Program-made: the position numbers and the translations under genes | Notes under the pieces: generated by a model | Databases searched by the model: none | What the model saw: the letters and a program-made list of their open reading frames with translations, nothing else | What the model was told of the DNA's origin: nothing | Part shown: one piece after another, positions 832-37,900 of the stretch | Numbering within the stretch: the first letter of the stretch is position 1 | Layout: every line of letters begins with the position of its first letter | Virus record (IMG/VR): IMGVR_UViG_3300010279_000003 | Span: 1 to 44,407 of that record | Length of the DNA: 44,407 nucleotides | Strand: one strand, 5' to 3' | Source of the DNA: a virus | Lineage: Duplodnaviria; Heunggongvirae; Uroviricota; Caudoviricetes

Positions 832-1326
832 TTAGCGGCGTCTCTTGACGCCGTGGTTTTCATGAAATCCGTAAGCAGCTTCTGCGGCTTTACGAACGGC
901 AACCGCCTCTTCTAATGCGCAAAAGAATCCAAGGTTAATGTGTTCGCCGTCAACACGAATAGTTGCGCGCCACTTCGATACATCCTTTCGCCAATACACG
1001 CCGGTGTATCCCGACTTATTATTAGTTAATAGCGCCCTGTTTCTGGAGTTACCTTTATTATTCGTTTTCCTTAAATTCTCTATCCTATCGTCCGCTCTGT
1101 TGTGATTGATGTGGTCTATTTGGTCGCCTTTATTTAATTTATCGGTTGGATTATGCATCTCCCATACGATATGACTAACTTTGTACTTTTTACCCAAACA
1201 GCTAACATATCGGTATCCGTTTTTGTTCACAGAACCCGCAACTATCCCCTCGGGCTTGTTCTTGCAAGGCTTATTAACCCAGTAAAGAACTCCTGAATCG
1301 TACCGGAAAACACTATACCAATTCAT
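832..1326 (-). CDS. HNH homing endonuclease with C-terminal AP2 DNA-binding domain
   Basis: HNH_3-like motif (GDQIDHINHNRADDRIENLR) followed by AP2-like segment (YTGVYWRKDVSKWRATIRVDGEHINLGFF). Confidence 0.75.
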   Translation of the reverse strand: MNWYSVFRYDSGVLYWVNKPCKNKPEGIVAGSVNKNGYRYVSCLGKKYKVSHIVWEMHNPTDKLNKGDQIDHINHNRADDRIENLRKTNNKGNSRNRALLTNNKSGYTGVYWRKDVSKWRATIRVDGEHINLGFFCALEEAVAVRKAAEAAYGFHENHGVKRRR

Positions 1327-1466
1327 TCCACTCCACCCGTTATGATTTCAACAAATATCTGTATCTGAGAGTTTGCACTGTCGAGTTGCTGCCGTAGGCG
1401 TAGAACCTCTTCTTCAAGTTCCTTGATACGTTTTTGCAATGCAGGAATCGGGGCTATGATGTTCAT
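1323..1466 (-). CDS. Small hypothetical protein (~47 aa, coiled-coil-like)
   Basis: Short ORF with ATGA-type overlaps to both neighbours; coordinates approximate. Confidence 0.3.
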   Translation of the reverse strand: MNIIAPIPALQKRIKELEEEVLRLRQQLDSANSQIQIFVEIITGGVE

Positions 1467-2887
1467 TTCTTACCTCGTCTCTTCATGTAATTAAGCAACT
1501 CTTCCTGTACCGATTTCTTCTCGTCTGTACGCGCGGCGACAACCTCGTCCAGCGTATCTTTAGCCACGATGTGGTAGAGAAACACCGGGCGCTCGTGGCC
1601 CGCCTGTTTCTGGCGTACCGGGCCTATGCGCTCAACAACCTGCAAATAGTGCTCAAGGTTCCATCCTTGCGAAATAAACGCCAGATGATGGCCGCCGTCC
1701 TGTAAATTCAAACCATGGCCGGCTGACGCAGGGTGGACGCACAAAATCTCGATTTCGCCCCGGTTCCACGCTTCCATCTGCTTATTACCCTTAGCGCCTT
1801 TGGCAAACGCCTGCGCCTGAGGGAATCGCTTAAGGATACGCTCCAGTTCGTGCTTAAACTGATAGGCCACCAGTAACGGTGCACCCTGTAGCTCCTCAAC
1901 AATGGACTCAAGCGCATCCAGTTTCGTGTCGTGCACTTTCTCCCAGTCTTTCGTTGCTTCGCCGTCCGGTCCTGATACATACACAGCACCAGATGCAATC
2001 TGTAAACACTTCGACGTCTTTGCTGCCGCGTTAGCCGCTTCAACTTCTCCGCTCTCAAGTTCCGCGAATAACTTTTCCTCCATATCGATGTACGCCTGGC
2101 GCGCCTTCTTCGGCAGGTCGATTTCAACAGGGACGATAACGGGCGCTTCGCAGCCAAACCACTCGGCAGCGTCAATCGTGAGACTGATGTCCTTCATCTT
2201 CTGGTGAATTTCATTATCCGCGCCAGGGCGCGCATGATACTCACGTGCCATAGCCGATTTGCCTTTCTGTACTGAGTTAAACCAGCGGTCGGTGAATGCC
2301 GTGTACGACGACCCCAGGCGCTCACCCGCGTCGATAAACCAGTTCTGGCCCCACAAGTCTTTTAGGCCGTTTGGTGACGGTGTGCCTGTAAGGTTAATGA
2401 AACGCTTAACCTTTCCGAACGCCACTTTGCTAAGCGCCTTTGCCCGCTTGCTACCACCTGAACGGCTGCGGAATGATTTTAGTTTCGTGCTTTCATCGGC
2501 GACAATAACCGTAAAAGGCCAGTCGTCTTTGCCGTAGTAGTCAATCAGCCATTCAATAACTTCGTAGTTGGTGCACACCACGTTAGCGTCAGACTCCAGC
2601 GCCGCGATGCGGCGCTTTTCTGAACCGGTGGCATCGACGACACGCAGACACGGGAAACCCCACTTAGTTTGTTCTGAGGGCCATGTGCCGGACGCAACAC
2701 GCAGCGGGGCGAGGATTAACACTCGGTCGTCGTCATTAAGTTGGCCGTTGCGGAACAGTCGGTTAAGCACCCACATCGTTGCGGAACTTTTGCCCGCGCC
2801 CATCGAAGCCCAAATATTACAGCGCGGATGTTGCAACATGAACGAAGTCATGAGCTTCTGGTACTCTCGACGGATAAATTTAGACAT
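1463..2887 (-). CDS. SNF2/DEAD-like superfamily 2 DNA helicase
   Basis: Walker A (GAGKSS) and DESTKLK box; 474 aa. Confidence 0.85.
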   Translation of the reverse strand: MSKFIRREYQKLMTSFMLQHPRCNIWASMGAGKSSATMWVLNRLFRNGQLNDDDRVLILAPLRVASGTWPSEQTKWGFPCLRVVDATGSEKRRIAALESDANVVCTNYEVIEWLIDYYGKDDWPFTVIVADESTKLKSFRSRSGGSKRAKALSKVAFGKVKRFINLTGTPSPNGLKDLWGQNWFIDAGERLGSSYTAFTDRWFNSVQKGKSAMAREYHARPGADNEIHQKMKDISLTIDAAEWFGCEAPVIVPVEIDLPKKARQAYIDMEEKLFAELESGEVEAANAAAKTSKCLQIASGAVYVSGPDGEATKDWEKVHDTKLDALESIVEELQGAPLLVAYQFKHELERILKRFPQAQAFAKGAKGNKQMEAWNRGEIEILCVHPASAGHGLNLQDGGHHLAFISQGWNLEHYLQVVERIGPVRQKQAGHERPVFLYHIVAKDTLDEVVAARTDEKKSVQEELLNYMKRRGKK

Positions 2888-2889
2888 AA

Positions 2890-3084
2890 TTAACCCTTAA
2901 CGTAGAGCACCAGCTCTTTACGCCCGAACGCCGTAACGTTACCAGTTACATCTTCGATAACCAGTTTACCGTTCGACTCGACGAACACCGTATCAACGGC
3001 AACAGGACGACGGGTCTTAACGCTGAAAATCATGTCGCCTGGTACGATGTCACGTGCTGGCTTGCGGTCATATTCGTGTTTCAT
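2890..3084 (-). CDS. Hypothetical protein
   Basis: 64-aa ORF tightly packed between helicase and VRR-NUC genes. Confidence 0.45.
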   Translation of the reverse strand: MKHEYDRKPARDIVPGDMIFSVKTRRPVAVDTVFVESNGKLVIEDVTGNVTAFGRKELVLYVKG

Positions 3085-3114
3085 TTCTCAATTCCTTATA
3101 TTGTTGGTGTGTGA

Positions 3115-3399
3115 TTAACTATAATAGCTCGCTATTAGGTCGTCAACCTGTTTAAACGAACCAACGACAAAAACATTTGCACCACGTTTGCTCATCCGCT
3201 CGTGCTCTCGTAGCTGATGCGGGTCCGGCTTCGTGTTTTCGTCTTTCTTAACCTCGACAAACCAGACTATGCCGCCTGGGAGAATTACCAGCAGGTCAGG
3301 AGCGCCCGCTCTATTTTCGTAGGAAAGTTTACGAACGAGGCCGCCAATGGCCTCGAATTGCTCTTTTGCGTATTTCTGAATCTTGCCTTCCGGTGTCAT
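3115..3399 (-). CDS. VRR-NUC domain nuclease (PD-(D/E)XK fold)
   Basis: 94 aa with PD...EVK motif (APDLLVILPGGIVWFVEVKKDEN). Confidence 0.7.
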   Translation of the reverse strand: MTPEGKIQKYAKEQFEAIGGLVRKLSYENRAGAPDLLVILPGGIVWFVEVKKDENTKPDPHQLREHERMSKRGANVFVVGSFKQVDDLIASYYS

Positions 3400-3679
3400 C
3401 AGTCCGTTACCTTACACAAAACGGCAACACCTAAAAACACGGCTACGATTACCATAATAAAGGTAAGCATTGTCATAATACGCACCCCTCACGTTTCGTT
3501 TGTTCAATACCGCAGCGCGGACAGATTCGACAGTCTTCTTCATAAAACCAGTATATTTTCATTCCAGCACCCACAGATAAATTGCGATGAACATGCCCAA
3601 TACGGCAACCATCATGCCGTATTGACCCTCATGACAGTAGACACCGGCGGCGAATCCCGCCAGTACCGCGATAATCAGT

Positions 3680-5881
3680 TTACTTAGCATAGCGTTTTAA
3701 CTCCGCACCTTCCGCTACAAGAGGGAAACCCTCCGCCCACTCAGGCAGCGAACACATTAATTTTTCCAGTTCAGCCACCGTGTACTCTGGGGCATCTGGA
3801 GTTTCGCACACCAATTCATCGTGTACCGAAAGCACGATGGGGTACCCGCCGCCTTCAACGTTAATCATCGCATACGCAAGTAAATCACGGCACAGCGCCT
3901 GAACAATGTTTTCGCAGGCTTTACCGCCGTGGGTGTACAGGGTAGTCCATTGGCGGGTTAACTGGTTTTCCCCCTGATACTTGATTCGCACATTCGTGTT
4001 TACCCGTCCGTCTTCGTCCGTTTCCTTTGTCACACTAACGCCGATTCCCGGATACGAGAGGATGCGACCTGACGGCAACTCCATGCATAACCACCAACCA
4101 GGAACCTTCCTGCCGGATGAATCAAATTCTACAGTACGCCATATGCGGATAGCCCTTTCCCCATTCCTTCGCAAGTGTGCTCCCGCCCAAAATTCACGAC
4201 CAGGATTACGCACAGCGGCTAAAATTCCGTCTTTAAGGTCACGCCAGAACGCTACTGTTTCAGGGTGTGACTCACGCCACATACGCTTGATTGCGTCGCA
4301 TGTGCGCCACACTTTCTTGTCAAGAATATATGATGGTCGATCGTCCTTTTCCCCTGGATGCGGGGGGCGCTTGGCTTCCTGGATGCGAGCCCATTCATAT
4401 CCTCTCGCGGTGGCTGACCAGATGTGGTCGGGGAATGTACCGTCCATTGTTTTTGCCATCTCAATAAGGTCAAGACCTAAGTTTTTGGCGAACGTAACGA
4501 ACGCTCCTACGCCGCCCTCGTAGCCGAGGCCAAGCTCGCAAGCCTTGCCTATCTGTCTTATTTCCTTGAAGTTTTTCTTAATATCGTCGGGGTCCATGCC
4601 AAACATCTTGCCCGCGGTTACACAGTAAATATCCAGTCCGGCGCGGAACGTATCGAGCGCGGTTTCTTCACCTGCCAGCCACGCAAGCCCGCGGCCTTCA
4701 ACGTTAGAGTAATCGGCGACGACAAACTTACGCCCGGCTTCCGGTATTATGCAGCTACGCACAGTAGATGCCGTTAGTTTGGCTACATCAAAACGGCGAT
4801 GGGCGCGGCCCTTAAGTAACGCCGAAATGCCTTTATCCAGCTCATAATCGTGATAGTAACCGCGTGCCAGGTTCTGCGGCTGGAAGCCTTTACCTGCCCA
4901 TCGCAGAGTACGTTTTGCCCCACCGTACTGCAAGCAACCGCGACGGCGGTCGTCCGAAGAGCGGCCCAGCAGCAGCGGGTTATATTTCGTGGACGCCGTG
5001 GACGCGGCCCCGAGGCGCATTTCGATAATCGTGCGTGCGTCGTCCGGTAAATCATCGTCCGCAAGCAAGTCATTCAGTGTCGACTTCTGCGCGTTGTGAA
5101 TACGGTGCGCAGGCGCAAGTTCACGCAGAATCGGAAGAAAGTCCTTCCCAGTAAGCGAGCAGCCGTGTTTGCGTTGGGCCTCTTCCTGTAACTGCGCTTT
5201 GTGTTTCTCCACGGCTTCAATCGCGGCTTCCGCCAGTGCCACGTCAACCTTAAACCCGCGGTCGTTGATTAACTGGTCCAGTTCCAGTACACGGTCTTCG
5301 AACTCGGAGTTACCCCACCGCGGCAGCTTATGGAAGACTTCACGCATTGCGGTGATGTCACTCACGGCGTATTTGATGAACAGTGCCCACTCGTCCGGGT
5401 GTGTTTCAGCGGTGTAGCGACGGATTTTGTAGTTCTTCGGCGTCGGTTTAGAGAAACGCTGAATCAGCGCCTTGCCTCGTTTGTCTTTCGCGTTGTCTGC
5501 TGACACGCCCAGCACTTCGCACAACGCATCGAGGGAACCCGGCAGCGCGTGACGAAACGCCCAAATCATCGTATCAATGGTGTTGCCTACAGGAATATCA
5601 AAGTCCCAGCAGTGTTTCATGATGAGCCTATCGAACATTGAGCCGTTGTGCCATACCATCTTGATGCGACTGTTCGGCTTAACCAGACGGCGTAGAGCGC
5701 GGTGTAAATCACCCGGCATGTCGCTGCCGTCGGTGCAATCCCATACCTGCACAGGCTCGTCGTCAAAGGCATAGGTACAGATGAGCACTTCGGTTGACGG
5801 GTGTTCGGCGTAAGCGTAGGAGCCGACTTTCTTCAAATCGGCTTCGGAGAATGTTTCAAAGTCCAGGTATAAGTAGCTCAT
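3680..5881 (-). CDS. DNA polymerase, family A, with 3'-5' exonuclease domain
   Basis: Exo motif YLDFETFS; pol motifs DYSNVEGR, RQIGKACELGLGYEGG, VHDELV; start set at ATG 5881 (MSYLYLDFE) with AAGGA RBS rather than the upstream alternative start in the ORF track. Confidence 0.9.
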   Translation of the reverse strand: MSYLYLDFETFSEADLKKVGSYAYAEHPSTEVLICTYAFDDEPVQVWDCTDGSDMPGDLHRALRRLVKPNSRIKMVWHNGSMFDRLIMKHCWDFDIPVGNTIDTMIWAFRHALPGSLDALCEVLGVSADNAKDKRGKALIQRFSKPTPKNYKIRRYTAETHPDEWALFIKYAVSDITAMREVFHKLPRWGNSEFEDRVLELDQLINDRGFKVDVALAEAAIEAVEKHKAQLQEEAQRKHGCSLTGKDFLPILRELAPAHRIHNAQKSTLNDLLADDDLPDDARTIIEMRLGAASTASTKYNPLLLGRSSDDRRRGCLQYGGAKRTLRWAGKGFQPQNLARGYYHDYELDKGISALLKGRAHRRFDVAKLTASTVRSCIIPEAGRKFVVADYSNVEGRGLAWLAGEETALDTFRAGLDIYCVTAGKMFGMDPDDIKKNFKEIRQIGKACELGLGYEGGVGAFVTFAKNLGLDLIEMAKTMDGTFPDHIWSATARGYEWARIQEAKRPPHPGEKDDRPSYILDKKVWRTCDAIKRMWRESHPETVAFWRDLKDGILAAVRNPGREFWAGAHLRRNGERAIRIWRTVEFDSSGRKVPGWWLCMELPSGRILSYPGIGVSVTKETDEDGRVNTNVRIKYQGENQLTRQWTTLYTHGGKACENIVQALCRDLLAYAMINVEGGGYPIVLSVHDELVCETPDAPEYTVAELEKLMCSLPEWAEGFPLVAEGAELKRYAK

Positions 5882-6046: not shown

Positions 6047-6072
6047 TAGTAAAAAGGCCCAATGAAGGGCCT
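6047..6072 (-). terminator. Intrinsic terminator (minus orientation) after the 6093..6725 gene
   Basis: Stem AGGCCC/GGGCCT followed by T-run on the minus strand. Confidence 0.45.
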
Positions 6073-17959: not shown

Positions 17960-18505
17960 ATGAAGCTGAAACTCAAGCAGCCATCGCCAGAGGTGGTGCA
18001 AGCTGCACATGAAGAAGCTGTTAGCGCAAACCGTCGCCGTAAACGACCGCGCGGTAAACAGAGCCTTTATCAATCATCCCGTAATTCCGCCGCGTTGTGG
18101 GACCCGGACTATTGCGACGAATTGATTCGTTTCTTCGACCGCACGTCGTGGGAGCTTGTGCCTACCTCCAAAGGCGACGAACGCCCGCTGATTCAGGACA
18201 AACCGCCGTCACTGGCCCGCTTTGCCTTACGCATCGGCGTCACTATCCCGATTATTAAGCTGTGGCTGCGCGAGATTCCCGCATTCGCAGAAGCATGGGA
18301 GACAGCGCAGGCATTGGAAGAGGCATACTTCACTGAGACAGGGGCCGCAGGTATCTCTGCTACGTTTGCCGCTGCGAAACTTGGCCTTGGCAAAGAGAAA
18401 CCAGTTGAATCCGCCGAAGAAACGGCACCGACTGAGATTATTTTCAGTGTTGCGGAGCCTGTAGGTAAAATTGTAACAACGAACATGGGTGAGGTAGAGG
18501 AATGA
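17960..18505 (+). CDS. terS: Putative terminase small subunit
   Basis: Position immediately upstream of terL with overlapping stop/start; basic N-terminal region; ATG 17960 inside ORF-track ORF 17921..18505. Confidence 0.5.
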   Translation: MKLKLKQPSPEVVQAAHEEAVSANRRRKRPRGKQSLYQSSRNSAALWDPDYCDELIRFFDRTSWELVPTSKGDERPLIQDKPPSLARFALRIGVTIPIIKLWLREIPAFAEAWETAQALEEAYFTETGAAGISATFAAAKLGLGKEKPVESAEETAPTEIIFSVAEPVGKIVTTNMGEVEE

Positions 18506-19752
18506 GTATTCAGCTATCCGCGCCGCAGGCACTGTTCCTGAATTGTGACAACAAATACAAGGCCTACGTAGGCGGCTTCGGTAGTGGCAAGACGTTTGTC
18601 GGCTGCCTTGACCTGCTTACGTTTATGCTCAAGCACCCCGGTACGCGCCTGGGCTACTTCGGCCCGACCTATCCCGCCATCCGTGACATCTTCTACCCAA
18701 CATTCGAGGAAGCGGCTAACCTGCTCGGCCTTGATGTGCTGGTTAAATCCGGAGACAAAGAGGTTGTGGTTACTCGCGGTAAGACGGTGCTCGGAACGGT
18801 TATCTGCCGCTCTATGGATAACCCCGGCTCGATTGTGGGTTTCAAAATCGCCGCAGCATGCGTGGATGAGCTCGATGTATTGAGCCGAGAAAAAGCTGAA
18901 CTGGCATGGAACAAAATCGTCGCCCGTATGCGTCTGGTTATCCCTGATGTAACCAACCACATCTCCGTCACCACGACGCCGGAAGGGTTCAAGTTCGTCT
19001 ACGCCAAGTTCAAAGAGAACCCGACACCGAGTTACTCAATGGTGCAGGCTTCCACCCACGAGAACGCGCGATTCCTGCCGCCTGACTACATTAGCTCGCT
19101 GACCGAGACTTACCCAGCGCAACTGATTAACGCGTACCTGAATGGGGAGTTCGTTAACCTGACATCCGGCAGCGTCTACTACGCCTACGACCGACGTAAG
19201 CATCGCAGCAAAGAGACAATCCAACCGGGCGACACGCTGTACATCGGGCAGGACTTCAACGTTACGAAGAACGCCAGCGCCGTGTATGTGCAACGTAAAG
19301 ACGGCTGGCACGCGGTAGCAGAACTGAAGGGCCTGTTCGATACGCCAGATACCGTGCGTGTGATTACCGAGAAGTGGAAGTCGCAAGGCCACCGCATCGT
19401 CGTTTACCCGGACGCCAGCGGCAAGAACCGCAAAACCAACTCGGCGTCAATCTCCGATATCGCCTTACTACAGCAGGCCGGTTTTGATGTTCGCGCTAAA
19501 TCCGCCAACCCACCGGTTAAAGACCGTGTTTTAGCCGTGAATACCGCGCTGGAAAAAGGTAAGCTGTGGGTTAACGACCACTTATGCCCTGAGATAGCGA
19601 AGACACTGGAGCAGCAGGCATATGATGATAACGGAGAGCCTGCTAAAGACGGCGTCATTGACCATATGGCGGATGCTCTCGGCTATCCTGTAGTTTATGA
19701 GATGCCGGTGGTTAAACCAGTAATCAACATCCCGGTGACTTTCGCACTTTAA
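18502..19752 (+). CDS. terL: Terminase large subunit
   Basis: Walker A (YVGGFGSGKTFVG) in N-terminal ATPase region; 416 aa. Confidence 0.85.
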   Translation: MSIQLSAPQALFLNCDNKYKAYVGGFGSGKTFVGCLDLLTFMLKHPGTRLGYFGPTYPAIRDIFYPTFEEAANLLGLDVLVKSGDKEVVVTRGKTVLGTVICRSMDNPGSIVGFKIAAACVDELDVLSREKAELAWNKIVARMRLVIPDVTNHISVTTTPEGFKFVYAKFKENPTPSYSMVQASTHENARFLPPDYISSLTETYPAQLINAYLNGEFVNLTSGSVYYAYDRRKHRSKETIQPGDTLYIGQDFNVTKNASAVYVQRKDGWHAVAELKGLFDTPDTVRVITEKWKSQGHRIVVYPDASGKNRKTNSASISDIALLQQAGFDVRAKSANPPVKDRVLAVNTALEKGKLWVNDHLCPEIAKTLEQQAYDDNGEPAKDGVIDHMADALGYPVVYEMPVVKPVINIPVTFAL

Positions 19753-21234: not shown

Positions 21235-21242
21235 AATAGAAA

Positions 21243-21268
21243 AGCCCCATTACGGGGCTTTATTTTAT
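21243..21268. terminator. Bidirectional intrinsic terminator between portal (+) and 21265..21447 (-)
   Basis: Stem AGCCCC/GGGGCT with T-rich tracts on both sides. Confidence 0.6.
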
Positions 21269-21447
21269 ACATCTCTGCTCGCCAGATAGTCACAGCGAGC
21301 TATGGCTAAGGATAAGCTACGGTATGCGCTATCGGATTTAGCGTGGGTAAACCCAGAAATCATTACGTAATACACCCCTTTATCGTTTAGAACCCAGTAT
21401 TTGCCGTTTTCGTGCATTATGTCTTTTTCTTTGAACATTTTAACCAC
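21265..21447 (-). CDS. Hypothetical protein, orphan minus-strand gene in the late region
   Basis: 60 aa; own class B promoter and RBS. Confidence 0.5.
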   Translation of the reverse strand: MVKMFKEKDIMHENGKYWVLNDKGVYYVMISGFTHAKSDSAYRSLSLAIARCDYLASRDV

Positions 21448-21467
21448 CCCCTGTTTAAGTTATCTGA

Positions 21468-21496
21468 ATAGTACCCTATTATATTGGTGTCTGCAA
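21468..21496 (-). promoter_or_regulatory. Sigma70-like promoter, class B (TTGCAG-N17-TACTAT)
   Basis: Read on minus strand; about 45 bp nearly identical to the copy at 24318..24346. Confidence 0.6.
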
Positions 21497-21540: not shown

Positions 21541-22584
21541 ATGAGCTTACTTACATCTCTAATCAGCCACCAAATATGGCTGCAACGCACCGCATCCGGT
21601 GAAGTGAAAGACCTCGCACCGTTCCTTCAGGAGATGCGGGACGAAATCAAACGGCAGGTGCTGTTATTCGGTGACGACGGGCGAAGCACCGCGCGGCTGA
21701 ATAAGCTGTTACGCGACCTTGAAGAAGCACTGACAGGACTTACAGGCGACTGGCAAACAAAGCTGACAGAAGACCTTAAGGAGCTGGCGGCGTATGAGGC
21801 TGAGTGGAATGTGAAGACACTTACGGCTAATGTTAACGCTGAATTTGTTACTCCGACCGCTGAGCAGGTGTGGTCTGCTGCCGTGTTTCAACCGCTGGCG
21901 TTAAATGACAAGCCTGTCGATTTCACCAAGCTGATGGAAGGCTGGGGTGAAACAGAAGTGTCTCGCCTGGTAACCGGCGTTAAGATGGGCTTTGTACAGG
22001 GCCAAACCACACGGCAGATTGTTAAGAATGTCGTAGGCGCTGGTGGGCTGGCAGACATCTCGGAACGAAACGCAGCTACGGTAATACGCACCGCGCTGTC
22101 CCATGTATCGAACGAAGCCCGCAATGAGACGTACCGACAGAATGACGACATCATCGAGAAGTACGAATGGGTGTCAACGCTGGACAGCCGTACCAGTACG
22201 ATTTGCAGAGCCAGAGACGGAATGACGTGGGAAATTGGTAAAGGTCCGATGCCCCCCGCCCATTTTGGATGTCGAAGTACCACTGCACCGGTAATCAGTT
22301 CGGAGTTCGACTTCCTAGATAAAGGTGCAAAACGCGCGGCTAAGGGTGCGGACGGCGGTATGCAGGTAAGCGCAGACACCACCTATTACGAGTTCCTGAA
22401 ACAGCAACCGGCATGGTTCGTGGATGAAGCACTCGGACCTACCCGCGGTGCTATATTCAGGAATAGTGGGATATCCCCAGAGGAATTCCGGGTAATATCC
22501 GTCGACGCTTTTGGTAGACCTTTAACCTTGAAGGAGATGGCGGCGTTAGATAACAGGGTTGCTGAATATCTTAGGTCGGTATAA
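21541..22584 (+). CDS. Head morphogenesis / minor head protein
   Basis: Position after portal; start ATG 21541 with GGAGG RBS inside ORF-track ORF 21484..22584. Confidence 0.6.
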   Translation: MSLLTSLISHQIWLQRTASGEVKDLAPFLQEMRDEIKRQVLLFGDDGRSTARLNKLLRDLEEALTGLTGDWQTKLTEDLKELAAYEAEWNVKTLTANVNAEFVTPTAEQVWSAAVFQPLALNDKPVDFTKLMEGWGETEVSRLVTGVKMGFVQGQTTRQIVKNVVGAGGLADISERNAATVIRTALSHVSNEARNETYRQNDDIIEKYEWVSTLDSRTSTICRARDGMTWEIGKGPMPPAHFGCRSTTAPVISSEFDFLDKGAKRAAKGADGGMQVSADTTYYEFLKQQPAWFVDEALGPTRGAIFRNSGISPEEFRVISVDAFGRPLTLKEMAALDNRVAEYLRSV

Positions 22585-22640
22585 AGTATATCTAGTAGCT
22601 AGCTTTGGTCGGTGAACTACTAAAAATAGAGAAAGAATAT

Positions 22641-22698
22641 AACCCCATGAAGGTATGCCTATCTCTGGCATCGACCAATCTTCATGGGGTTTTCTTAT
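22641..22698 (+). terminator. Long hairpin (12-bp stem AACCCCATGAAG/CTTCATGGGGTT) with T-rich tail
   Basis: Inverted repeat read directly; the ORF-track start at 22655 lies inside it. Confidence 0.45.
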
Positions 22699-22708
22699 AG
22701 GGTTTAAT

Positions 22709-23278
22709 ATGGGAATTGTTTTTGGTGTGGGTATTAACGATGTTTCACCAATAAGTTGCGGAGGGGTGCATATAGCGTCCTACGCCGTATGGAAGAACAT
22801 GTTAAAGAGGTGCTACGACAAGAAATGGCAGCAAAGAAACAGAACTTATATAGGTTGCCGCGTGTCGGACGATTGGTTGGTGTTCAGTAATTTCAAGGTC
22901 TGGTTTGATGATTTTTATGTACCTGGGTGGCAGATAGATAAGGATTTACTTAACCCGGGAAATAAGGTTTACGATGCTTCTAACTGTGTTTTCATCCCTA
23001 AATCCCTCAATACTTTCCTAACAGCCCACGACGCTCTTCGAGGCGAACACCCACTCGGCGTACATTTCCATAAACAAAAGAAAAGATTCATCGCTCAAGT
23101 ATCCGTGGATGGCGTATCTGAACAAATAGGCGCTTACGAAACCGCTCAAGAGGCACACGTAGCATGGTTTCATAGAAAAATTGAATTAGCATATGAATAC
23201 AAAGGTCTTTGCGATAGCATAGACCCACGCCTTTTCGAAGGCGTCTTACGTAAGATTAACTCAATGAAAGAGGTTTAG
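22709..23278 (+). CDS. AP2-domain protein, homing-endonuclease-like
   Basis: C-terminal AP2-like segment (GVHFHKQKKRFIAQVSVDGVSEQIGAYETAQEAHVAW); no clear HNH histidines seen in the N-terminal part. Confidence 0.5.
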   Translation: MGIVFGVGINDVSPISCGGVHIASYAVWKNMLKRCYDKKWQQRNRTYIGCRVSDDWLVFSNFKVWFDDFYVPGWQIDKDLLNPGNKVYDASNCVFIPKSLNTFLTAHDALRGEHPLGVHFHKQKKRFIAQVSVDGVSEQIGAYETAQEAHVAWFHRKIELAYEYKGLCDSIDPRLFEGVLRKINSMKEV

Positions 23279-23744: not shown

Positions 23745-23773
23745 AGGCCCCATAATGGGGCCTTAGTTTTATT
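23745..23773. terminator. Bidirectional intrinsic terminator
   Basis: Stem AGGCCCC/GGGGCCT, loop ATAAT, T-rich tail. Confidence 0.6.
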
Positions 23774-24290
23774 TAAATCGCGCAGGCATTAACACCATAA
23801 AGGCCGTGTTTGAAAATTGTATTTTGCATCCTCTGGTTTGGTCCTGGAAATCGAAACGAGCAATTTCATTTTTGTATGCCTTAGAAATCTTGTACGCGTC
23901 TGCCAAATAGCGCAGAGTGAACCCTATACTGTCGACAACACCCGGTGTGATGTGCGCCACGCGTCTCCAGTCAGGAAAGTTTCCTTCTACAACATCTACC
24001 GGAAGTGTACATATAAGCGCACGATTATCGTCATAGAAAGATACACTGCCGTTGTCGTGGTTTACCTCTGCGTAGTTAAATTTAGAAGGCTCTCTCCCTT
24101 TGATGTCTATGAGAGTCCCTTTCTCAACGTTGGTCTTCACATTGTCGCAGAACAATCTATGACTGTCCGTAGACACTATCAATCCTTCAGGGTCTATGTA
24201 AAAAGCGTTCAAATAGTAGCGCACATCATTTTTAGCCCTGCATATTTTCGCCCCTACATACGCAGGGAAAGTAATTACTGTAGTAACCAT
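23769..24290 (-). CDS. Truncated beta sliding clamp (DnaN) homologue: domain II plus the C-terminal half of domain III, no domain I
   Basis: Matches to E. coli DnaN as I recall it: DVRYYLN, TDSHRL (vs TDGHRL), FPDWRRV (vs FPDYRRV), IGF..YL.D, C-terminal VLMPARF (vs VVMPMRL); own promoter and AGGAG RBS. Confidence 0.7.
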   Translation of the reverse strand: MVTTVITFPAYVGAKICRAKNDVRYYLNAFYIDPEGLIVSTDSHRLFCDNVKTNVEKGTLIDIKGREPSKFNYAEVNHDNGSVSFYDDNRALICTLPVDVVEGNFPDWRRVAHITPGVVDSIGFTLRYLADAYKISKAYKNEIARFDFQDQTRGCKIQFSNTAFMVLMPARFK

Positions 24291-31496: not shown

Positions 31497-31523
31497 AAGG
31501 CCCCGAAAGGGGCCTTACTATTT
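31497..31523. terminator. Bidirectional intrinsic terminator
   Basis: Stem AAGGCCCC/GGGGCCTT, loop GAAA; T-rich on the minus side. Confidence 0.6.
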
Positions 31524-31582
31524 ACCGTGGTTCTCGTGGAACCCTAAATCTCTTTCAGCAACTCTCCTCGCAGCAACTGCAT

Positions 31583-32014
31583 CTAGTAGCGTTTTAAAGC
31601 ATCCGATGTGTGTGTTTTTACGTTATTGTTGAATATCTGTGCATACCACAACCTTTCTTTCGCGTTCCAGTAAACCCCGGTTACTCCTGATTTATTATTA
31701 CGCTGTTTTGACATATTTTTATGATTTTCCGCATTGGACTTTTTAGCTAAGTTAAGCGGTCTATTGTTTATTCGGTTATGGTCTAGATGGTCTATTTGAT
31801 CTGACGAGGTTAGCTTATCGTTAGGATTATTTAAGTCCCAAGCTATACGGTGCGCCGCGTGCCATTTACCCCTGAAAAATATCCTTCTATACCCGTCTCG
31901 CTGTACAGTACCTGCCTCCTCTCCAGCCTTAGCCCTCCCAGACCGTGTTACTCTGTTAAATATCCTTCCTGAAATTAAGTCGTATATGAAAAATTCATTC
32001 CAGTCCATAATCAT
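31583..32014 (-). CDS. HNH homing endonuclease with AP2 domain
   Basis: SDQIDHLDHNRINNRPLNL (HNH_3-like) and GVTGVYWNAKERLWYAQI (AP2-like). Confidence 0.75.
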   Translation of the reverse strand: MIMDWNEFFIYDLISGRIFNRVTRSGRAKAGEEAGTVQRDGYRRIFFRGKWHAAHRIAWDLNNPNDKLTSSDQIDHLDHNRINNRPLNLAKKSNAENHKNMSKQRNNKSGVTGVYWNAKERLWYAQIFNNNVKTHTSDALKRY

Positions 32015-32027: not shown

Positions 32028-32055
32028 AAGGCCCCTTTCGGGGCCTTTTTCTTTA
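32028..32055 (+). terminator. Hairpin with T-tail in plus orientation, inside the minus-strand accessory operon
   Basis: Stem AAGGCCCC/GGGGCCTT, loop TTTC, then TTTCTTT. Confidence 0.45.
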
Positions 32056-33600: not shown

Positions 33601-33639
33601 GCTTTACTTCCTCGTGTTTAGGATTTGTCCTATACTAGC

Positions 33640-33831
33640 TCACTTCTCTTTGACATTCGAGTTGCACGCCCAGATTAAAATAAATACCCACGGCAGCAGA
33701 ACCCAACCGAGAAACAGATTAGCCATGAATATCGCTAATTTAGCTTTATGGTTGCGCATATGCGCCACGAGAAATGGGATAAAATAAACTAAAACGATAA
33801 TGATTAAGAAGAACATAGTAATACCTGTCAT
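33640..33831 (-). CDS. Small membrane protein resembling the superinfection-immunity (Imm) family
   Basis: AIFMANLFLGW...W...LIWA pattern; family recalled from memory. Confidence 0.55.
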   Translation of the reverse strand: MTGITMFFLIIIVLVYFIPFLVAHMRNHKAKLAIFMANLFLGWVLLPWVFILIWACNSNVKEK

Positions 33832-33872
33832 GGGGTAGCTCCTGTTTGAGTTAACATTGTTGGTGTAAGTGA

Positions 33873-33901
33873 ATAGTATCCTATTATGTTGGGGTGTGCA
33901 A
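33873..33901 (-). promoter_or_regulatory. Sigma70-like promoter, class B (TTGCAC-N17-TACTAT) driving the accessory operon
   Basis: Read on minus strand; spacer ACCCCAACATAATAGGA. Confidence 0.6.
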
Positions 33902-33968
33902 GTAATGTGTTAGAATTATTTTGCGCCTAGTGTCGCACACGAAAAGCGGGTGGTTCCCGTCTGGCGCA

Positions 33969-34001
33969 TTAACCTTAACCTTAACCAGTAACCTCTTAAC
34001 C
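33969..34001. repeat. Tandem TTAACC hexamers (three contiguous plus a fourth copy)
   Basis: TTAACCTTAACCTTAACCAGTAACCTCTTAACC read directly. Confidence 0.7.
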
Positions 34002-34014
34002 AAAGGATTAAAGA

Positions 34015-34431
34015 ATGAAACTTTCTGATTTTTATTACGAAGCTGAGGCAGAAAAAGGCGCCCGTATGCCAATACCACTGAAAGACGGCACCGATTCAGG
34101 GGAGTGGCTGAACGTTGTTTCACCGGAGGCAGACGTTGCCGTTAAAGCTATGAGGGCGTTTACACTTGCGTACCGCGCGGCATTAGGTAAATTGAAACCG
34201 CTTCGTGATAAATGCGAGGAACTGAAAGATTTCTCGGAATACAATATTAAGATGGAAGACGCCGCGACGGACCTTAACCGCCAGTTAGCACTTGAACTGG
34301 TTAACGGTTGGAGTCTCGACGATGAATTTAATAAAGAGAACCTGAACACTCTTTTCTCACAATATAAACGCCTCGCTGAACACGTTGTTGTTTTCCACAA
34401 CGAACAGCTTCACCAATTGCAGGAAAAGTAG
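34015..34431 (+). CDS. Tail assembly chaperone (G-like)
   Basis: 138 aa directly upstream of tape measure gene. Confidence 0.55.
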   Translation: MKLSDFYYEAEAEKGARMPIPLKDGTDSGEWLNVVSPEADVAVKAMRAFTLAYRAALGKLKPLRDKCEELKDFSEYNIKMEDAATDLNRQLALELVNGWSLDDEFNKENLNTLFSQYKRLAEHVVVFHNEQLHQLQEK

Positions 34432-34436
34432 ACGCG

Positions 34437-34796
34437 TTGCTCCAGTTTGCCCGTTGGAACTTCATAACCCGCCACAAACGGCGGGAGTTTGACAGCATTG
34501 CCGACGGACATAAAGCCGCGCTAATTGCTATGGGGGTTATGCAAGACGCGCCGGAAGCAACGCAGGATACCGGGCCAGAATGCCCCCCTGAGCTATTAAC
34601 CACCTTCGAGAAGTACCGGGAAATCAAATTTACCCGCCGAGTGGATGACGACGGCATCAAGATGTACCCGCGCGAACAGTTAAGATGGTCGGATTTAGTG
34701 GCATACAGCACCGTTTCGGGCCAGAATATAGACATGTTTGAATCTGACATCATCATGAGCTTAGACGCTATTTTCGAGGGCAGAAACGATGGCTGA
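34437..34796 (+). CDS. Second tail assembly chaperone ORF (T-like), in the -1 frame relative to the G-like ORF
   Basis: Frame is open from 34380, overlapping the end of the G-like ORF; may be expressed as a frameshift fusion. Confidence 0.45.
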   Translation: MLQFARWNFITRHKRREFDSIADGHKAALIAMGVMQDAPEATQDTGPECPPELLTTFEKYREIKFTRRVDDDGIKMYPREQLRWSDLVAYSTVSGQNIDMFESDIIMSLDAIFEGRNDG

Positions 34797-37128
34797 TGTA
34801 GCTAGTTTAGTTGTAAAAGTATCAGAGCAAGGCGCGAAAGCTACCTCAGACCGTCTTGATAACCTTTCCAAGTCCGCAAAGGTAGCCGGGGCCGCGGTAG
34901 CGGGCCTCGCTTCCATCGTCGCTGCTACCGCGTACAAGGCCGCACAGGAACTGGTAGACTCCCAACGGCAACTGGATAAGATGTCCGCCAGCCTGAAAAC
35001 ACTAACCGGAAGCACGCAGGGGGCAAGACAGGCATTAAGCATCCTGCAAGACTTCGCGCGCGACACTCCGTATGGTCTTGAACAGGCAGTAGAGGGATTC
35101 CGTAAACTTGTGGCGCTTGGTCTTACACCATCAGAAGAAGCGTTGCGCTCCTATGGCAACACTGCCGCTGCTATGGGTAAAGACCTAAATCAGATGATTG
35201 AGGCCGTTGCGGACGCCAGTACGTTTGAATTTGAGCGCCTTAAAGAATTCGGCATCAAGGCTAAGCAGAACAAAGACGATGTTGAATTTACATTCCAGGG
35301 CACTACTACGGTGGTTAAGAAGAGCGCTGCCGATATCGAGCAATACCTGCTCAACATTGGTAACGTAAACTTCGCTGGGGCTATGGCGGACCAGGCTGAC
35401 ACACTTAACGGGGCCATAGCCAGTGCCAGCGACTCATGGTCGCAGTTAAAAATGACACTGGCTACCAGTCTTGATGTTGGTGCGCTCGCCGAACCTATCC
35501 GATACATCGATGATTTAATCCAGGAACTTAACGCACAGGTTGCATCCGGTGAACTTGCCGCAGAGATGCGTATGTGGGGTGACATCGCGTCGGAAGTAGG
35601 AAGCGCGATAGAGATGTCGTTCGACGCGGCATTTGGTTTTGTAGGTGACGCGATAAATGGACTGAATGAACTTTGGGATTTTAGCAGTAAAAGTATCACC
35701 GACAGCGGCGAACAAACGGCGACAACCATCGCGGAATCAGCAGCCGATGCGCTCGATTTCATCGCGGAAGAATTTACCGCGATGGAGCGCTTCTTTGAAG
35801 ATATGGTTAAAGGGGCGCAGGACGCTGGCCGGTTGGTGAAAGCAGCCTTCACACCAGGGGAATCTGTAGACGTAGCAAAAAACATTAACTTCCAGCTAGG
35901 GATGGCACTGGATACTCAGCGCGATGTTGCGGACCTGACCCGTAAAAGTTTCCGCGAACAGGTGGAGGCTCAGCAAAATATCGTCGCGCTTAAACGCGCG
36001 GCATATGACATCGACAAAGAAGCCGCTAAGGAAGAAGGGCTTAGTAAATTTAAGGTAACTGGTACTGGTGTCGGGTCCGAAGATGATAATGCTGGTGCAA
36101 AAGCCGCCAAGAAAGCTGCGGACGCGTTCGAGCGCCAGAAGAAAGCCGCGGAGGATTTCTACTACCAGTCGATTCATCTCAATGACGACGTATTCCAGAA
36201 AATAGAAGCTAATCAGGAGCAACAGTTAACCAAGCTACAAGAGTTTTACGGCAACCAGCTTCTTAGCGACCAGCAATACGAGAACGCCAAAACTCAAATT
36301 ATGCTGGAGGCGGACACCGCACGTCAGGAAGAACTCGCCAAGCGGGAGAAAGAACGGCAGGAGAAGAACCAGAAAGGCGAGGACTTCATGGCTCAGATTA
36401 TGGGCCAGAATGCTGCCGAGCTTGAGCTTCTGGAGATTCAGGAACAACAAAAACTGGACGTTGCTGATAGATACCGTGAACAGAATCTGATTAACGAGGA
36501 GCAGTACCAGGCAGCGGTTAACGCGATAAACGACCAGTACGCATTGAAACGTGCCAACGCTACCGGTAACGCTTTTGGCATGATGGCGGACAACATTAAG
36601 TCATCGCTAGGCGAGGCGTCCTCCGCGTATAAAGCATTCGCTATCGCTCAGGCCACAATAGCCACATACACATCCGCCATCGAGGCTTATAAATCTGCGT
36701 CCGCGATTCCTATTGTTGGTTGGGTGCTTGGTCCTGTGGCCGCGGCGGCAGCAGTAGCAGCAGGTCTGGCTAACATCGGCAAGATTCGTTCGGCCCGTGA
36801 ACAGGGAGGTCAGTTATCTGCGGGGCAGGCTTCCACCATCGCCGAACGCGGTAAACCAGAAGTTATCATGCCTGCTGGTGCATCGCGCGTACGAACTGCG
36901 CAGCAGATGAAAGAAATTATGGGGCAAAATGGGTCTTCTTCTGGCCCATCTAATGTTACCATTGTAAATAACACATCGAGTCAGATTGGCAACGTATCTA
37001 CCGAGCAGGATGACGAAGGCCGTTTGCGCATCATCATAGAAGAGCAGGTGGCTGCCTCTTTGCAGAACAGCAACAGTAAGATTAGCAAGGCCCGCAAGGC
37101 CACAAGAAACGCGCCTGGTTTCAAGTAA
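34789..37128 (+). CDS. Tail tape measure protein
   Basis: 779 aa, Ala/Gln/Glu-rich, hydrophobic segment near C-terminus, follows chaperone pair. Confidence 0.85.
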   Translation: MADVASLVVKVSEQGAKATSDRLDNLSKSAKVAGAAVAGLASIVAATAYKAAQELVDSQRQLDKMSASLKTLTGSTQGARQALSILQDFARDTPYGLEQAVEGFRKLVALGLTPSEEALRSYGNTAAAMGKDLNQMIEAVADASTFEFERLKEFGIKAKQNKDDVEFTFQGTTTVVKKSAADIEQYLLNIGNVNFAGAMADQADTLNGAIASASDSWSQLKMTLATSLDVGALAEPIRYIDDLIQELNAQVASGELAAEMRMWGDIASEVGSAIEMSFDAAFGFVGDAINGLNELWDFSSKSITDSGEQTATTIAESAADALDFIAEEFTAMERFFEDMVKGAQDAGRLVKAAFTPGESVDVAKNINFQLGMALDTQRDVADLTRKSFREQVEAQQNIVALKRAAYDIDKEAAKEEGLSKFKVTGTGVGSEDDNAGAKAAKKAADAFERQKKAAEDFYYQSIHLNDDVFQKIEANQEQQLTKLQEFYGNQLLSDQQYENAKTQIMLEADTARQEELAKREKERQEKNQKGEDFMAQIMGQNAAELELLEIQEQQKLDVADRYREQNLINEEQYQAAVNAINDQYALKRANATGNAFGMMADNIKSSLGEASSAYKAFAIAQATIATYTSAIEAYKSASAIPIVGWVLGPVAAAAAVAAGLANIGKIRSAREQGGQLSAGQASTIAERGKPEVIMPAGASRVRTAQQMKEIMGQNGSSSGPSNVTIVNNTSSQIGNVSTEQDDEGRLRIIIEEQVAASLQNSNSKISKARKATRNAPGFK

Positions 37129-37132
37129 TAAT

Positions 37133-37150
37133 ATGGCCCTTTCGGGCCAT
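37133..37150. other. Hairpin between convergent tape measure and endonuclease genes
   Basis: Stem ATGGCCC/GGGCCAT, loop TTTC. Confidence 0.5.
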
Positions 37151-37153
37151 AAC

Positions 37154-37900
37154 TTACTCGCTGCGTACTTTTCCGTTACATAGCTCCGTGAACTCAGCTA
37201 TTATCTCGCTGTTGGCCACCATCCACTCACTGGCCCCATCAAAGTTGCTTAGCTCCGCCGATACGTGTGTGCGGTGAAAGTATCGCTCTAACATACGGCA
37301 ACGAGCACCATTAGCGTCTTGGTATACACTAAGCACATGGAACTCAAACGGAGTGGAGCGCTCCAGTTGAGCAAGTCGTTGTTTTAACTTGTTAGTAATA
37401 CCTATTTTAAGGTATTTACCACATGCAGAAAGAAGTCCGTAAATGTACCCTGGTTTGTTAGAGTCGTAGCCGTGTCTGGCGCACGACGGACAACCATGCC
37501 TGTGCACTAAAATATTATTAACCCCTGTAGCAAACACCCCGTGGTCATTACATGCGCGTATCGCTTTGGAGTTTTTGTTTAGGTACGCGCCGCCTTCAAA
37601 ACCCACGAACGTATATCGAACATCCGCGGATTTTATTTGCTCAATAACGGCATCTGTATTCTTGCGGTAGGCAGCCGCCGCGGCTTCTCGACTGCATTTC
37701 ATACACCCGTGTCCTCCAGAGATGCTACGGGCTATAGCTGAAAATTCACCGTGGGACGGGCAAATAAGTCTAATCTTGCTAGTCGAGTCAATGTACTCAC
37801 TACCGTCATAACTTGCGGATATTGTGTACTTCCCGCCGTGTTTCTTTAAATCTAACTCGACCATTTTCTTCCGTTCTTCCCAACCAATTTTAACGCTCAT
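37154..37900 (-). CDS. GIY-YIG-related (T5orf172-like) endonuclease-like protein with Cys/His zinc-binding motifs
   Basis: PGYIYGLL...YLKIGIT motif; repeated CPSHGEF and GCPSCARHG motifs. Confidence 0.55.
   Translation of the reverse strand: MSVKIGWEERKKMVELDLKKHGGKYTISASYDGSEYIDSTSKIRLICPSHGEFSAIARSISGGHGCMKCSREAAAAAYRKNTDAVIEQIKSADVRYTFVGFEGGAYLNKNSKAIRACNDHGVFATGVNNILVHRHGCPSCARHGYDSNKPGYIYGLLSACGKYLKIGITNKLKQRLAQLERSTPFEFHVLSVYQDANGARCRMLERYFHRTHVSAELSNFDGASEWMVANSEIIAEFTELCNGKVRSE

Follow-up and report, generated by a model that had tools for sequence, protein, structure and literature searches.

Four free-standing homing-endonuclease-like cassettes of three known families in the genome of an E. 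coli siphophage

Four genes scattered through the window, the whole 44,407-nucleotide stretch of DNA that we analysed, are probably free-standing homing-endonuclease cassettes that belong to three known families and spread by the homing route proposed here. We call them HEG1 to HEG4 (Table 1). HEG1 and HEG2 are of the HNH_3 + AP2 type, HEG3 is an IPA-HNH gene with an AP2 domain, and HEG4 is a T5orf172 gene of the GIY-YIG superfamily. We infer both that the HEG proteins cleave DNA and the positions at which they cut. An earlier note on this DNA had picked out the same four open reading frames, called them homing-endonuclease-like (HNH-AP2 twice, AP2-bearing, and GIY-YIG-related) and named their neighbours. 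Profiles and homology bear out these identities, and the neighbours are as given there: helicase and tailspike for HEG1, tail tube and phosphoesterase operon for HEG2, head-morphogenesis and decoration genes for HEG3, and tape measure and distal tail for HEG4. Searching solved structures with HEG1, HEG3 or HEG4 as a single sequence returned chance matches only, so family profiles and predicted folds were needed. No HEG adjoins the terminase genes (18502..19752 and upstream), and on that ground a packaging-associated HNH role was rejected.

The window comprises the entire genome of a Kagunavirus-type E. coli siphophage of the Guernseyvirinae and has about 89-93% nucleotide identity to many isolates. 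Within it, all four genes are separate open reading frames between other genes and lie in neither an intron nor an intein; an Rfam scan of the whole window gave no family over threshold, group I and group II introns included, and no further paralogue of any of the four is found there. The cassettes are sharply bounded and measure 531-906 bp.

Table 1. Positions of the four genes, their cassettes and associated features in the window
Feature	Positions	Strand	Basis
HEG1, free-standing HNH_3 + AP2 homing-endonuclease gene, 164 aa	832..1326	-	ORF and profile match
HEG1 cassette, ~539 bp, within a 45-aa ORF downstream of the helicase gene	847..1385	-	Breakpoints against empty-site relatives
Hybrid 47-aa ORF	1323..1466	-	Read from sequence; matches phrog_5915
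Co-converted 200-bp flank, recoded 3' end of the head-morphogenesis gene, travels with HEG3	22372..22571	+	K1ind3 against K1ind2
HEG3 cassette, 693 bp, between head-morphogenesis and decoration genes	22572..23264	+	BLAST breakpoints
Terminator-like hairpin upstream of the HEG3 start, then a small hairpin pairing with the start codon	22641..22691	+	RNA fold -40.7 kcal/mol, z-score -2.7
HEG3, IPA-HNH + AP2 gene, 189 aa from M19 (likelier start)	22709..23278	+	Longest ORF begins at 22655
Terminator hairpin copy 1 (AGGCCCC-GAAA-GGGGCCT), left edge of HEG2 cassette	31498..31515		Sequence comparison
HEG2, HNH_3 + AP2 gene, frameshifted, 143 aa instead of 162	31583..32014	-	Profile match and comparison with relatives
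Terminator hairpin copy 2, right edge of HEG2 cassette	32029..32046		Sequence comparison
HEG4 cassette, net addition ~906 bp	37130..38020	-	Sequence comparison
Hairpin directly downstream of HEG4, inside the cassette	37132..37151	-	Consensus scan only
HEG4, T5orf172 gene with two CapR/DUF723-type zinc modules, 248 aa	37154..37900	-	Profile matches
HEG4 promoter-like site	37959..37931	-	Consensus scan only

The distribution of the four genes among relatives carries most of the argument. With each HEG plus its flanks as query, and with the phage records that match each site (about 490-700) as denominator, the site is occupied by its cassette in 0 of 699 records for HEG1, 5 of 493 for HEG2, 7 of 488 for HEG3 and 3 of 495 for HEG4; in the remaining matching records the two flanks are adjacent to each other. 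L AB-2017, HSE2 and fPoEco01 are examples of HEG-free relatives. Universal, syntenic presence in relatives, which the earlier note had named as the observation that would speak against mobility, is thus not what these records hold. Carriers of HEG1 and HEG4 do occur in metagenomes, all of them with the cassette at the identical locus: the exact HEG1 protein is found there on at least 24 independent contigs, and the exact HEG4 protein on 10, in both cases with differing tailspike genes. Among 50,697 phage records, the HEG1 protein has no match above 51% identity and none holds all four genes together.

Between carriers, the inserts are 95-100% identical, mostly 98-100%, in flanks of only 70-95% identity, and the boundaries are sharp; the lowest insert identity, 95%, is that of Schulenburg for HEG3 and Ro145clw for HEG2. 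The proteins display a corresponding gap, with a few copies per gene at 96.6-100% identity in the genus and the next best, at 52% or less, in other phage groups. Furthermore, the genes assort independently: phage 536P11 has HEG2 and HEG3, fFiEco02 has HEG3 and HEG4, combinations vary between genomes, and carriers are not mutually closest relatives by their flanks. Judged by these sequence comparisons, the cassettes have clearly moved between related phages recently, and the sporadic presence of near-identical inserts at one site in diverged flanks upholds the earlier suggestion that they are mobile insertions.

HEG1 scores 35.8 bits to HNH_3 (PF13392; Pfam gathering cut-off 24.8), a C-terminal AP2 domain is present, and its predicted structure matches the I-HmuI and AP2 folds. 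Residues D71, H72, N76 and N84 are invariant when HEG1 is aligned with the HEG2 family. In eight contigs the cassette is 99-100% identical, with flanks at 70-100% and four different types of tailspike gene. Its insertion has split a small open reading frame of the backbone, which supplies the first 27 codons of the hybrid frame while the cassette supplies the remainder; ATGA overlaps couple this hybrid to the stop codon of the helicase gene at one end and to the start of HEG1 at the other, and the displaced original C-terminus of the small frame, AQLAFVLEKLSEE followed by its stop, lies downstream of HEG1.

HEG2 is a paralogue of HEG1 (41% identity) that reaches 26.9 bits to HNH_3 (same cut-off, 24.8). 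Compared with KMB36, 536P11 and Ro145clw, the gene has a 2-nt insertion in an A-run/(AC) repeat tract, which ends the protein at residue 143; for this reason its AP2 match stays below threshold (15 bits against a Pfam cut-off of 33.3, E 0.031). Relatives encode 162 residues with a complete AP2 domain, the remainder of which is still readable here in another frame (31524-31610). The cluster of intact HEG2 proteins has 98 members; the truncated product has no exact match on record, whichever of two starts is assumed, and scans of IMG/VR for the frameshifted and the intact allele matched neither. The frameshift may be either genuine or a sequencing error; the SRR5190303 assembly, which around HEG1 matches the window at 100% identity, should by its coordinates also cover this position (31600-31640). 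Since HEG2 is truncated in this genome, it is probably inactive here, and it appears to be decaying via a frameshift in its DNA-binding domain, as such elements are expected to do towards the end of their life cycle. The net insertion is 531 bp with one hairpin copy counted; HEG-free relatives have a single copy of this terminator hairpin.

HEG3 has no match to the Pfam HNH_3 profile (PF13392) and aligns instead with gp59 of the Vibrio phage ICP1 (BLASTP, 35% identity over 113 aa, E 8e-21). Its true start is more likely M19 at 22709, where the earlier note had placed it, than 22655: the structure model shows residues 1-16 as disordered, M19 is where most homologues begin, and the 54 nt upstream of M19 form a hairpin. 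In HEG-free genomes the head-morphogenesis and decoration genes overlap by 1 nt. Four relatives share the cassette that separates them here at 99.6-100% identity, and Schulenburg, a fifth, shares it at 95%. Comparison of two isolates, K1ind3 with the gene and K1ind2 without it, reveals 1 mismatch in about 1100 bp upstream and then 57 in 200 bp; across these same 200 bp, K1ind3 is identical to the window at 200 of 200 positions. From this abrupt change, the probable cut site of HEG3 falls in the final 200 bp of the head-morphogenesis gene. The idea that K1ind2 and K1ind3 differ in HEG3 alone was rejected, as their terminase-portal region also differs. Flank comparisons at the other sites gave a short tract of about 100 bp for HEG2 and no clear co-conversion tract for HEG1 or HEG4.

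HEG3 and its family have an invariant Asp-Lys-Asp where HNH enzymes have Asp-His. In a profile-profile alignment of IPA-HNH with HNH_3, the AP2 domains aligned and the nuclease cores did not; therefore the equivalence of Lys96 to the catalytic His could not be established. Because of this substitution, we tentatively consider that IPA-HNH proteins such as HEG3 may cut via a non-canonical active site or else mobilise otherwise, a possibility that we would rate below even. If true, K1ind3 and K1ind2 would provide the first easily tractable E. coli system for IPA-HNH and T5orf172 homing.

HEG4 scores above the cut-off for T5orf172 (27.6 bits, cut-off 20), MUG113 (35.3, cut-off 22.3) and CapR (27.7). 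Its score to the classic GIY-YIG profile, PF01541, is 13.9 bits, under the 22.6 cut-off, which places it in the T5orf172 subfamily and not in the classic GIY-YIG family. Across 27 homologues K165, G167, I168, N170, E205, G222 and E225 are invariant, and the family invariants include two zinc-module motifs (Cys-His-Cys-Cys) and K-I-G-I-T-N; the conserved Glu of the T5orf172 domain has been assigned a catalytic role (PMC10448857). DUEC01 and fFiEco02 have the cassette at 99.4-99.6% identity in flanks of 66-95%, and its net addition counts a duplication of about 15 bp of the junction between the tape-measure stop and the ribosome-binding site of the next gene.

The earlier note also described three of the genes as opposite in strand to their neighbours or bounded by hairpins. 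As to strand, HEG4 alone runs against the genes on both sides of it; HEG1 and HEG2 each run in the same direction as the upstream gene at a convergent junction, and HEG3 is co-directional with both. As to hairpins, two copies of one terminator bracket HEG2, one hairpin lies upstream of HEG3, another belongs to the HEG4 cassette itself, and the backbone terminator is 62 bp from HEG1. The further suggestion that the genes mark recombination-prone sites is supported locally, in that other genes reuse the junctions. A Toprim-like gene occupies the HEG1 site in phiEc3, other relatives have an IPA-HNH gene, a kinase/ATPase pair or a Roi/Ant-like gene at the tail-tube junction of HEG2, and the tape-measure junction of HEG4 holds an IPA-HNH paralogue in phage XY1. 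This reuse by differing endonuclease families counts in favour of homing. The support is local only: an identity map of the whole genome against two complete relatives is a fine-grained mosaic with breakpoints everywhere, and such a map does not single out HEGs as specific markers of recombination boundaries or as "HEG islands". Because the whole genome is mosaic, general recombination alone moves segments in this group, which counts against homing.

We propose that, in a mixed infection, the nuclease would cut a related Kagunavirus genome that lacks the cassette, close to where the cassette inserts, and that repair of the break from the cassette-bearing genome would copy in the cassette and sometimes adjacent DNA too. 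The placement of each cassette would keep the neighbouring genes expressed. HEG1 may achieve this through translational coupling to the helicase operon, HEG2 by lying between duplicated terminator hairpins, HEG3 by bringing a recoded end of the head-morphogenesis gene and preserving the ribosome-binding site of the decoration gene, and HEG4 through the duplicated junction of tape-measure stop codon and next-gene ribosome-binding site. Variable presence, frameshifts and proximity to essential genes have been described for the same families (PMC10448857), where the authors regard homing of the ICP1 relatives as unverified.

Alternatively, the cassettes may be passive passengers, spread by general homologous or illegitimate recombination, with nuclease-like proteins that do not drive the transfer. 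We hold this to be improbable, despite the breakpoints seen genome-wide in pairwise comparisons, the non-nuclease cargo at some of the same junctions (a kinase/ATPase pair, Roi/Ant-like genes and a clamp-like gene) and the want of an evident co-conversion tract at HEG1 and HEG4. Endonuclease-family domains are present in each of the four variable genes under test, the same junctions repeatedly harbour genes of three unrelated endonuclease families, and targeted insertion better fits inserts of 95-100% identity in flanks of 70-95%, with boundaries of a few nucleotides in every carrier. An ancestral origin, with all four genes in a common ancestor and deletion in most lineages, is scarcely credible. 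It would require the cassettes not to be far more alike between carriers than the surrounding DNA, as they are; carriers are not closest relatives by flanks, their gene combinations differ, and K1ind3 has both the cassette and 200 bp of foreign sequence that K1ind2 lacks, even if presence and absence data alone do not distinguish insertion from deletion.

Domestication of at least one of the proteins, which would now serve the phage as a CapR-like regulator, a weapon against competitors or satellites, or a packaging helper and no longer be selfish, seems very improbable to us. The HEGs are missing from the great majority of close relatives and are therefore dispensable, HEG2 is frameshifted, none adjoins the terminase genes, and HEG4 retains the family-invariant Glu and the KIGITN core. 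These points weigh against the CapR-homology modules of HEG4, the IPA-HNH family's lack of the canonical catalytic His, and the precedent of CapR of the cholera phage satellite PLE, which is described in PMC8096241 as a domesticated relative of T5orf172 nucleases.

Spread by homing, the reading that we prefer, has precedents among known systems. The Seg and Mob endonuclease genes of T4-like phages are likewise free-standing, home without an intron and form intergenic cassettes that lie between essential genes. Their spread takes place in mixed infections, where flanking markers are co-converted, and hairpins often regulate them. The genes of the window differ from these in their combinations of nuclease and DNA-binding domains and in the host phage group, and are known here from sequence alone. 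I-HmuI itself is intron-encoded and has a different C-terminal DNA-binding region. Among genes of the I-HmuI-type HNH_3/AP2 class, HEG1 and HEG2 are likewise free-standing and variably present and keep the D-H...N...N motif (IDHINHNR...ENL), whereas HEG2 here is without the last part of its AP2 domain. HNH-AP2 genes have been found in phages, cyanobacteria and protists (ref. 45 as cited in PMC10448857).

The IPA-HNH genes of ICP1 (gp59, gp115/116 and gp209; Barth, Dunham and Seed 2023, PMC10448857) resemble HEG3 in its LDKD...GNKxY...C...N core and C-terminal AP2, and HEG3 homologues lie mostly in Vibrio, Pseudomonas and Rheinheimera phages, matching that study. HEG3 differs in residing in an E. 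coli Guernseyvirinae siphophage (a name absent from the main text of that paper), between head-morphogenesis and decoration genes, and in having a clean 200-bp co-conversion tract in natural isolates. With the T5orf172 genes of ICP1 and T5-like phages and with CapR, HEG4 shares a C-terminal T5orf172/MUG113 domain with an invariant Glu and repeated N-terminal CapR/DUF723 zinc modules; a further likeness is its place at a tape-measure gene, which it adjoins. Most homologues have a third zinc module and a length of about 300 aa, whereas HEG4 has only two modules in 248 aa. HEG4 is also a free-standing antisense gene in an intergenic position; that of ICP1 lies inside the tape-measure gene.

Mobile nuclease genes are an ordinary, well-known and already described feature of phage genomes, and our findings leave the current understanding of phage homing endonucleases unchanged. 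Their practical value is mostly in annotation and comparative genomics; HEG2, for example, is best annotated as a frameshifted pseudogene unless the sequence errs. The four cassettes explain part of the variation in length and gene content among similar coliphages that are therapeutic candidates, and they mark junctions that tolerate foreign genes. The HEG3 tract and the reuse of junctions by three nuclease families offer test cases for the little-studied homing of IPA-HNH and T5orf172 genes in an E. coli phage.

Cassettes carrying the four endonuclease-like genes, each an inserted segment with a single gene, are sporadic among relatives of this Kagunavirus-type phage. An earlier note had read these genes from the sequence as probable mobile insertions at recombination-prone sites, and its observation and interpretation are essentially correct. 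The comparison with relatives that it had named beforehand was made by blastn, with each gene plus ~180-500 bp of flank per side as query; a cassette was scored as present when at least 80% of the query was covered, and a site as empty when the flanks were adjacent. Cassettes were rare at their sites, with the flanks adjacent in the rest: that of HEG1 was found in 0 of 699 matching records (0 distinct phages, GenBank/RefSeq duplicates being taken out), that of HEG2 in 5 of 493 (4 distinct), that of HEG3 in 7 of 488 (5 distinct) and that of HEG4 in 3 of 495 (2 distinct). The few Kagunavirus copies of the HEG2-HEG4 proteins are 96.6-100% identical, and the next best matches, in other phage groups, reach at most 52%. 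The HEG1 protein has no match above 51% in phage records; its exact sequence lies on at least 24 metagenome contigs, each time flanked by the helicase operon and a tailspike gene, with four different tailspike gene types among the listed carriers. The exact HEG4 protein is encoded on 10 contigs, each time in antisense orientation with the tape-measure gene and the next tail gene as neighbours. The genes assort independently, HEG2 with HEG3 in phage 536P11 and HEG3 with HEG4 in fFiEco02; one Logan contig, 100% identical to the window across the region compared around HEG1, also encodes an identical HEG4 protein.

Between carriers, cassettes are mostly 98-100% identical and the adjoining DNA typically 70-95% (100-bp and 500-bp bins), the exceptions, at ~95% cassette identity, being Schulenburg for HEG3 and Ro145clw for HEG2. 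Together with sporadic presence and independent assortment, this contrast bears out the reading as mobile insertions. One clear co-conversion tract adjoins HEG3. K1ind3, which carries HEG3, and K1ind2, which lacks it, show one difference in ~1100 bp upstream, then 57 over the 200 bp that adjoin the cassette (22372-22571); along this stretch K1ind3 and the window agree in 200 of 200 positions. This recoded end of the head-morphogenesis gene is 97-100% identical among HEG3 carriers except Schulenburg (92-95%), and 70-80% in HEG3-free genomes. Tract and gene together form the pattern that would be expected if break repair copied the cassette plus a cleavage-resistant flank. HEG2 is accompanied by a shorter tract of ~100 bp; binned identity comparisons with carriers gave no evident tract beside HEG1 or HEG4.

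All four predicted ORFs are present, and their family assignments hold. HEG1 and HEG2, both HNH_3 plus AP2 genes, are paralogues with 41% identity. HEG3 shares 35% identity (E 8e-21) with Vibrio phage ICP1 gp59, the protein on which the 'IPA-HNH' class was founded; in this class the N-terminal domain is HNH-like but too divergent for Pfam HNH_3 to detect, and a C-terminal AP2 domain follows (Barth, Dunham and Seed, PMC10448857). The canonical His is absent in this family. The start assigned to HEG3 in the earlier note is better than a longer upstream one because the 18 codons that precede it are modelled as disordered, missing in most homologues and located inside a strong hairpin. The gene called GIY-YIG-related, HEG4, belongs to T5orf172, a subfamily of GIY-YIG nucleases (PMC10448857); two Cys-His-Cys-Cys zinc modules, a K-I-G-I-T-N core and Glu225 are kept in 27 homologues. 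A tblastn search of the window with the four and related proteins gave no fifth copy, and no intron or other RNA family was detected there.

Hundreds of Guernseyvirinae phage genomes match the 44,407-base window, none of them identical to it; the best are E. coli Kagunavirus isolates at ~88-93% nucleotide identity. Its first and last 123 bases form an exact direct repeat (1-123 = 44285-44407); the assembly is thus complete and closes into a circle of 44,284 bp, with the tailspike gene crossing the window ends. Logan contig SRR5190303_9318 continues across the joined ends, with 100% identity to the window. The gene map was taken from annotated relatives.

Coordinates of the endonuclease genes, their cassettes and surrounding features
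Feature	Position	Strand	Size	Remark
HEG1 gene	832..1326	minus		above Pfam HNH_3 threshold
HEG1 cassette	847-1385		~539 bp	within a 45-aa ORF
HEG2 gene	31583..32014	minus		above Pfam HNH_3 threshold
HEG2 cassette			net 531 bp	one hairpin copy counted
HEG3 gene	start 22709	plus		homology to ICP1 gp59
HEG3 cassette	22572-23264		693 bp	at head-morphogenesis/decoration gene overlap (one base in empty genomes)
HEG4 gene	37154..37900	minus		above thresholds for T5orf172, MUG113 and CapR homology domain
HEG4 cassette			net ~906 bp	includes ~15 bp duplication of tape-measure stop codon/next-gene ribosome-binding site junction
GC-rich terminator hairpin	765-784			backbone terminator between HEG1 and tailspike gene; hairpin copy at 766-783
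GC-rich terminator hairpins	31498-31515, 32029-32046			either side of HEG2
HEG4 hairpin	37132-37151			
Hairpin and small stem	22585-22725			upstream of HEG3
Segment with antisense ORF	~21235-21483		~225 bp	between portal and head-morphogenesis genes
Antisense ORF	21265..21447	minus	60 aa	phrog_20712 (unknown function), E 1e-26
Antisense gene	23769..24290	minus	173 aa	within head module; phrog_3007
Tail gene	38034..39431		465 aa	downstream of HEG4
Replication module	~0.8-12 kb	minus		helicase, DNA polymerase, nuclease, primase-helicase
Early and lysis genes				after replication module
Packaging, head and tail module	~18 kb to end	plus		
Short interrupting block	31.5-34 kb	minus		within packaging/head/tail module

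At HEG1, the first 27 codons of the interrupted ORF now run on into cassette-derived codons and its original C-terminus is stranded downstream; the HEG3 cassette preserves the decoration gene's ribosome-binding site. HEG1 runs in the direction of the helicase operon with chained reading frames, ATGA overlaps joining the helicase stop to the start of a 47-aa ORF and the stop of that ORF to the HEG1 start, and it faces the tailspike gene over the backbone terminator. HEG2 is co-directional with the minus-strand block, opposed to the tail-tube gene, and flanked on both sides by copies of one hairpin, AAGGCCCC-N4-GGGGCCTT, of which HEG-free relatives have a single copy. HEG3 shares the direction of both neighbours. 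The claim that three of the genes are on the opposite strand or hairpin-bounded thus needs correcting: HEG4 alone runs against both of its neighbours, the plus-strand tape-measure and distal-tail genes, and it has a hairpin of its own and a promoter-like site in its own direction. Three copies of the GC-rich terminator hairpin are present (766-783, 31498-31515 and 32029-32046), against 0.07 expected by chance. Genomes that are nearly identical elsewhere differ in the orientation of its 4-nt loop (GAAA or TTTC), a difference suggestive of recombination inside the palindromic stem. Upstream of HEG3, a strong terminator-like hairpin precedes a small stem pairing with the start codon (fold z-score -2.7), and the two may restrain HEG3 expression; some T4 endonuclease genes are restrained by such hairpins.

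HEG2 appears damaged. An A-run/(AC) repeat tract is two bases longer here (window GTAAAAACACACACATC, against GTAAAAACACACATC in KMB36, 536P11 and Ro145clw), and the protein stops at residue 143 rather than 162, without the final strand and helix of its AP2 domain; the lost part can still be read in another frame. No record of the truncated product exists in a large protein collection; 98 sequences cluster as the intact form, and among the 15 members listed 12 have 162 aa and three 164 or 179 aa. The extra bases may be a real frameshift or a sequencing error.

The same junctions are reused by other genes. The tail-tube junction (HEG2 site), empty in HSE2 and phage 26, is occupied in fPoEco01 by an IPA-HNH paralogue on the opposite strand (L001 12559-13191), in K1G and others by a polynucleotide-kinase/ATPase pair, and in Salmonella Jerseyviruses by a Roi/Ant-like gene. 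At the tape-measure junction (HEG4 site), XY1 has an IPA-HNH gene in antisense that is paralogous to HEG3 (35% identity, E 1e-33; L032 819-1469). At the HEG1 site, phiEc3 has a Toprim-like gene (L004 965-1480), and a different HNH_3 gene immediately follows the helicase gene in Salmonella phage S142 and one metagenome contig. This reuse supports a view of the sites as insertion-prone; it does not single them out as recombination boundaries, because fine-grained mosaicism runs throughout the genome.

Other segments vary as well. HSE2 has two further HNH_3-AP2 genes (L002 9184-9675 and 33307-33777) at sites empty in the window. The ~225-bp segment is missing in all seven aligned relatives and may be another small mobile insertion. 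The 173-aa antisense gene, with a weak sliding-clamp-like Pfam match, is present in fPoEco01, fFiEco02 and Schulenburg and absent in K1ind2, K1ind3 and 536P11; it is a variable cassette outside the four endonuclease families studied. The product of the tail gene downstream of HEG4 has 465 aa in DUEC01 as in the window, against 166 aa in most relatives; the extra ~300 aa at its C-terminus correspond to phrog_11600 (unknown function) and, weakly, to a tail-protein family. The extension is not tied to HEG4, since in fFiEco02 HEG4 occurs with the short form. DNA polymerase has 1032 aa in fPoEco01 (L001 27185-30283) and two metagenome relatives (L016, L023) against 751 aa in the window, and a helicase intein is annotated in some Salmonella relatives; relatives thus bear more insertions within replication genes, absent from the window genome.

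Free-standing endonuclease genes can spread by intronless homing, as the Seg and Mob genes in T4-like phages are known to do, and this is the mechanism best supported here by the sequence comparisons. The HEG proteins would cleave DNA at putative sites near the insertions, that of HEG3 probably in the 3'-terminal 200 bp of the head-morphogenesis gene, and would be expressed by read-through or translational coupling. The same process has been proposed for T5orf172 and IPA-HNH genes of ICP1-like phages. The HEG families, siting beside essential genes, variable presence and frequent frameshifts have already been published (PMC10448857). Deposited Kagunavirus genomes already contain nearly identical copies of three of the genes, labelled there as HNH endonuclease or hypothetical protein, and the fourth, HEG1, is abundant in metagenomes. 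The four cassettes are real but ordinary selfish elements of known kinds. What our analysis adds is where exactly the cassettes begin and end, an apparent frameshift in HEG2, a co-conversion tract next to HEG3, the recurrence of three nuclease families at single junctions and the lack of a canonical His in the IPA-HNH family.
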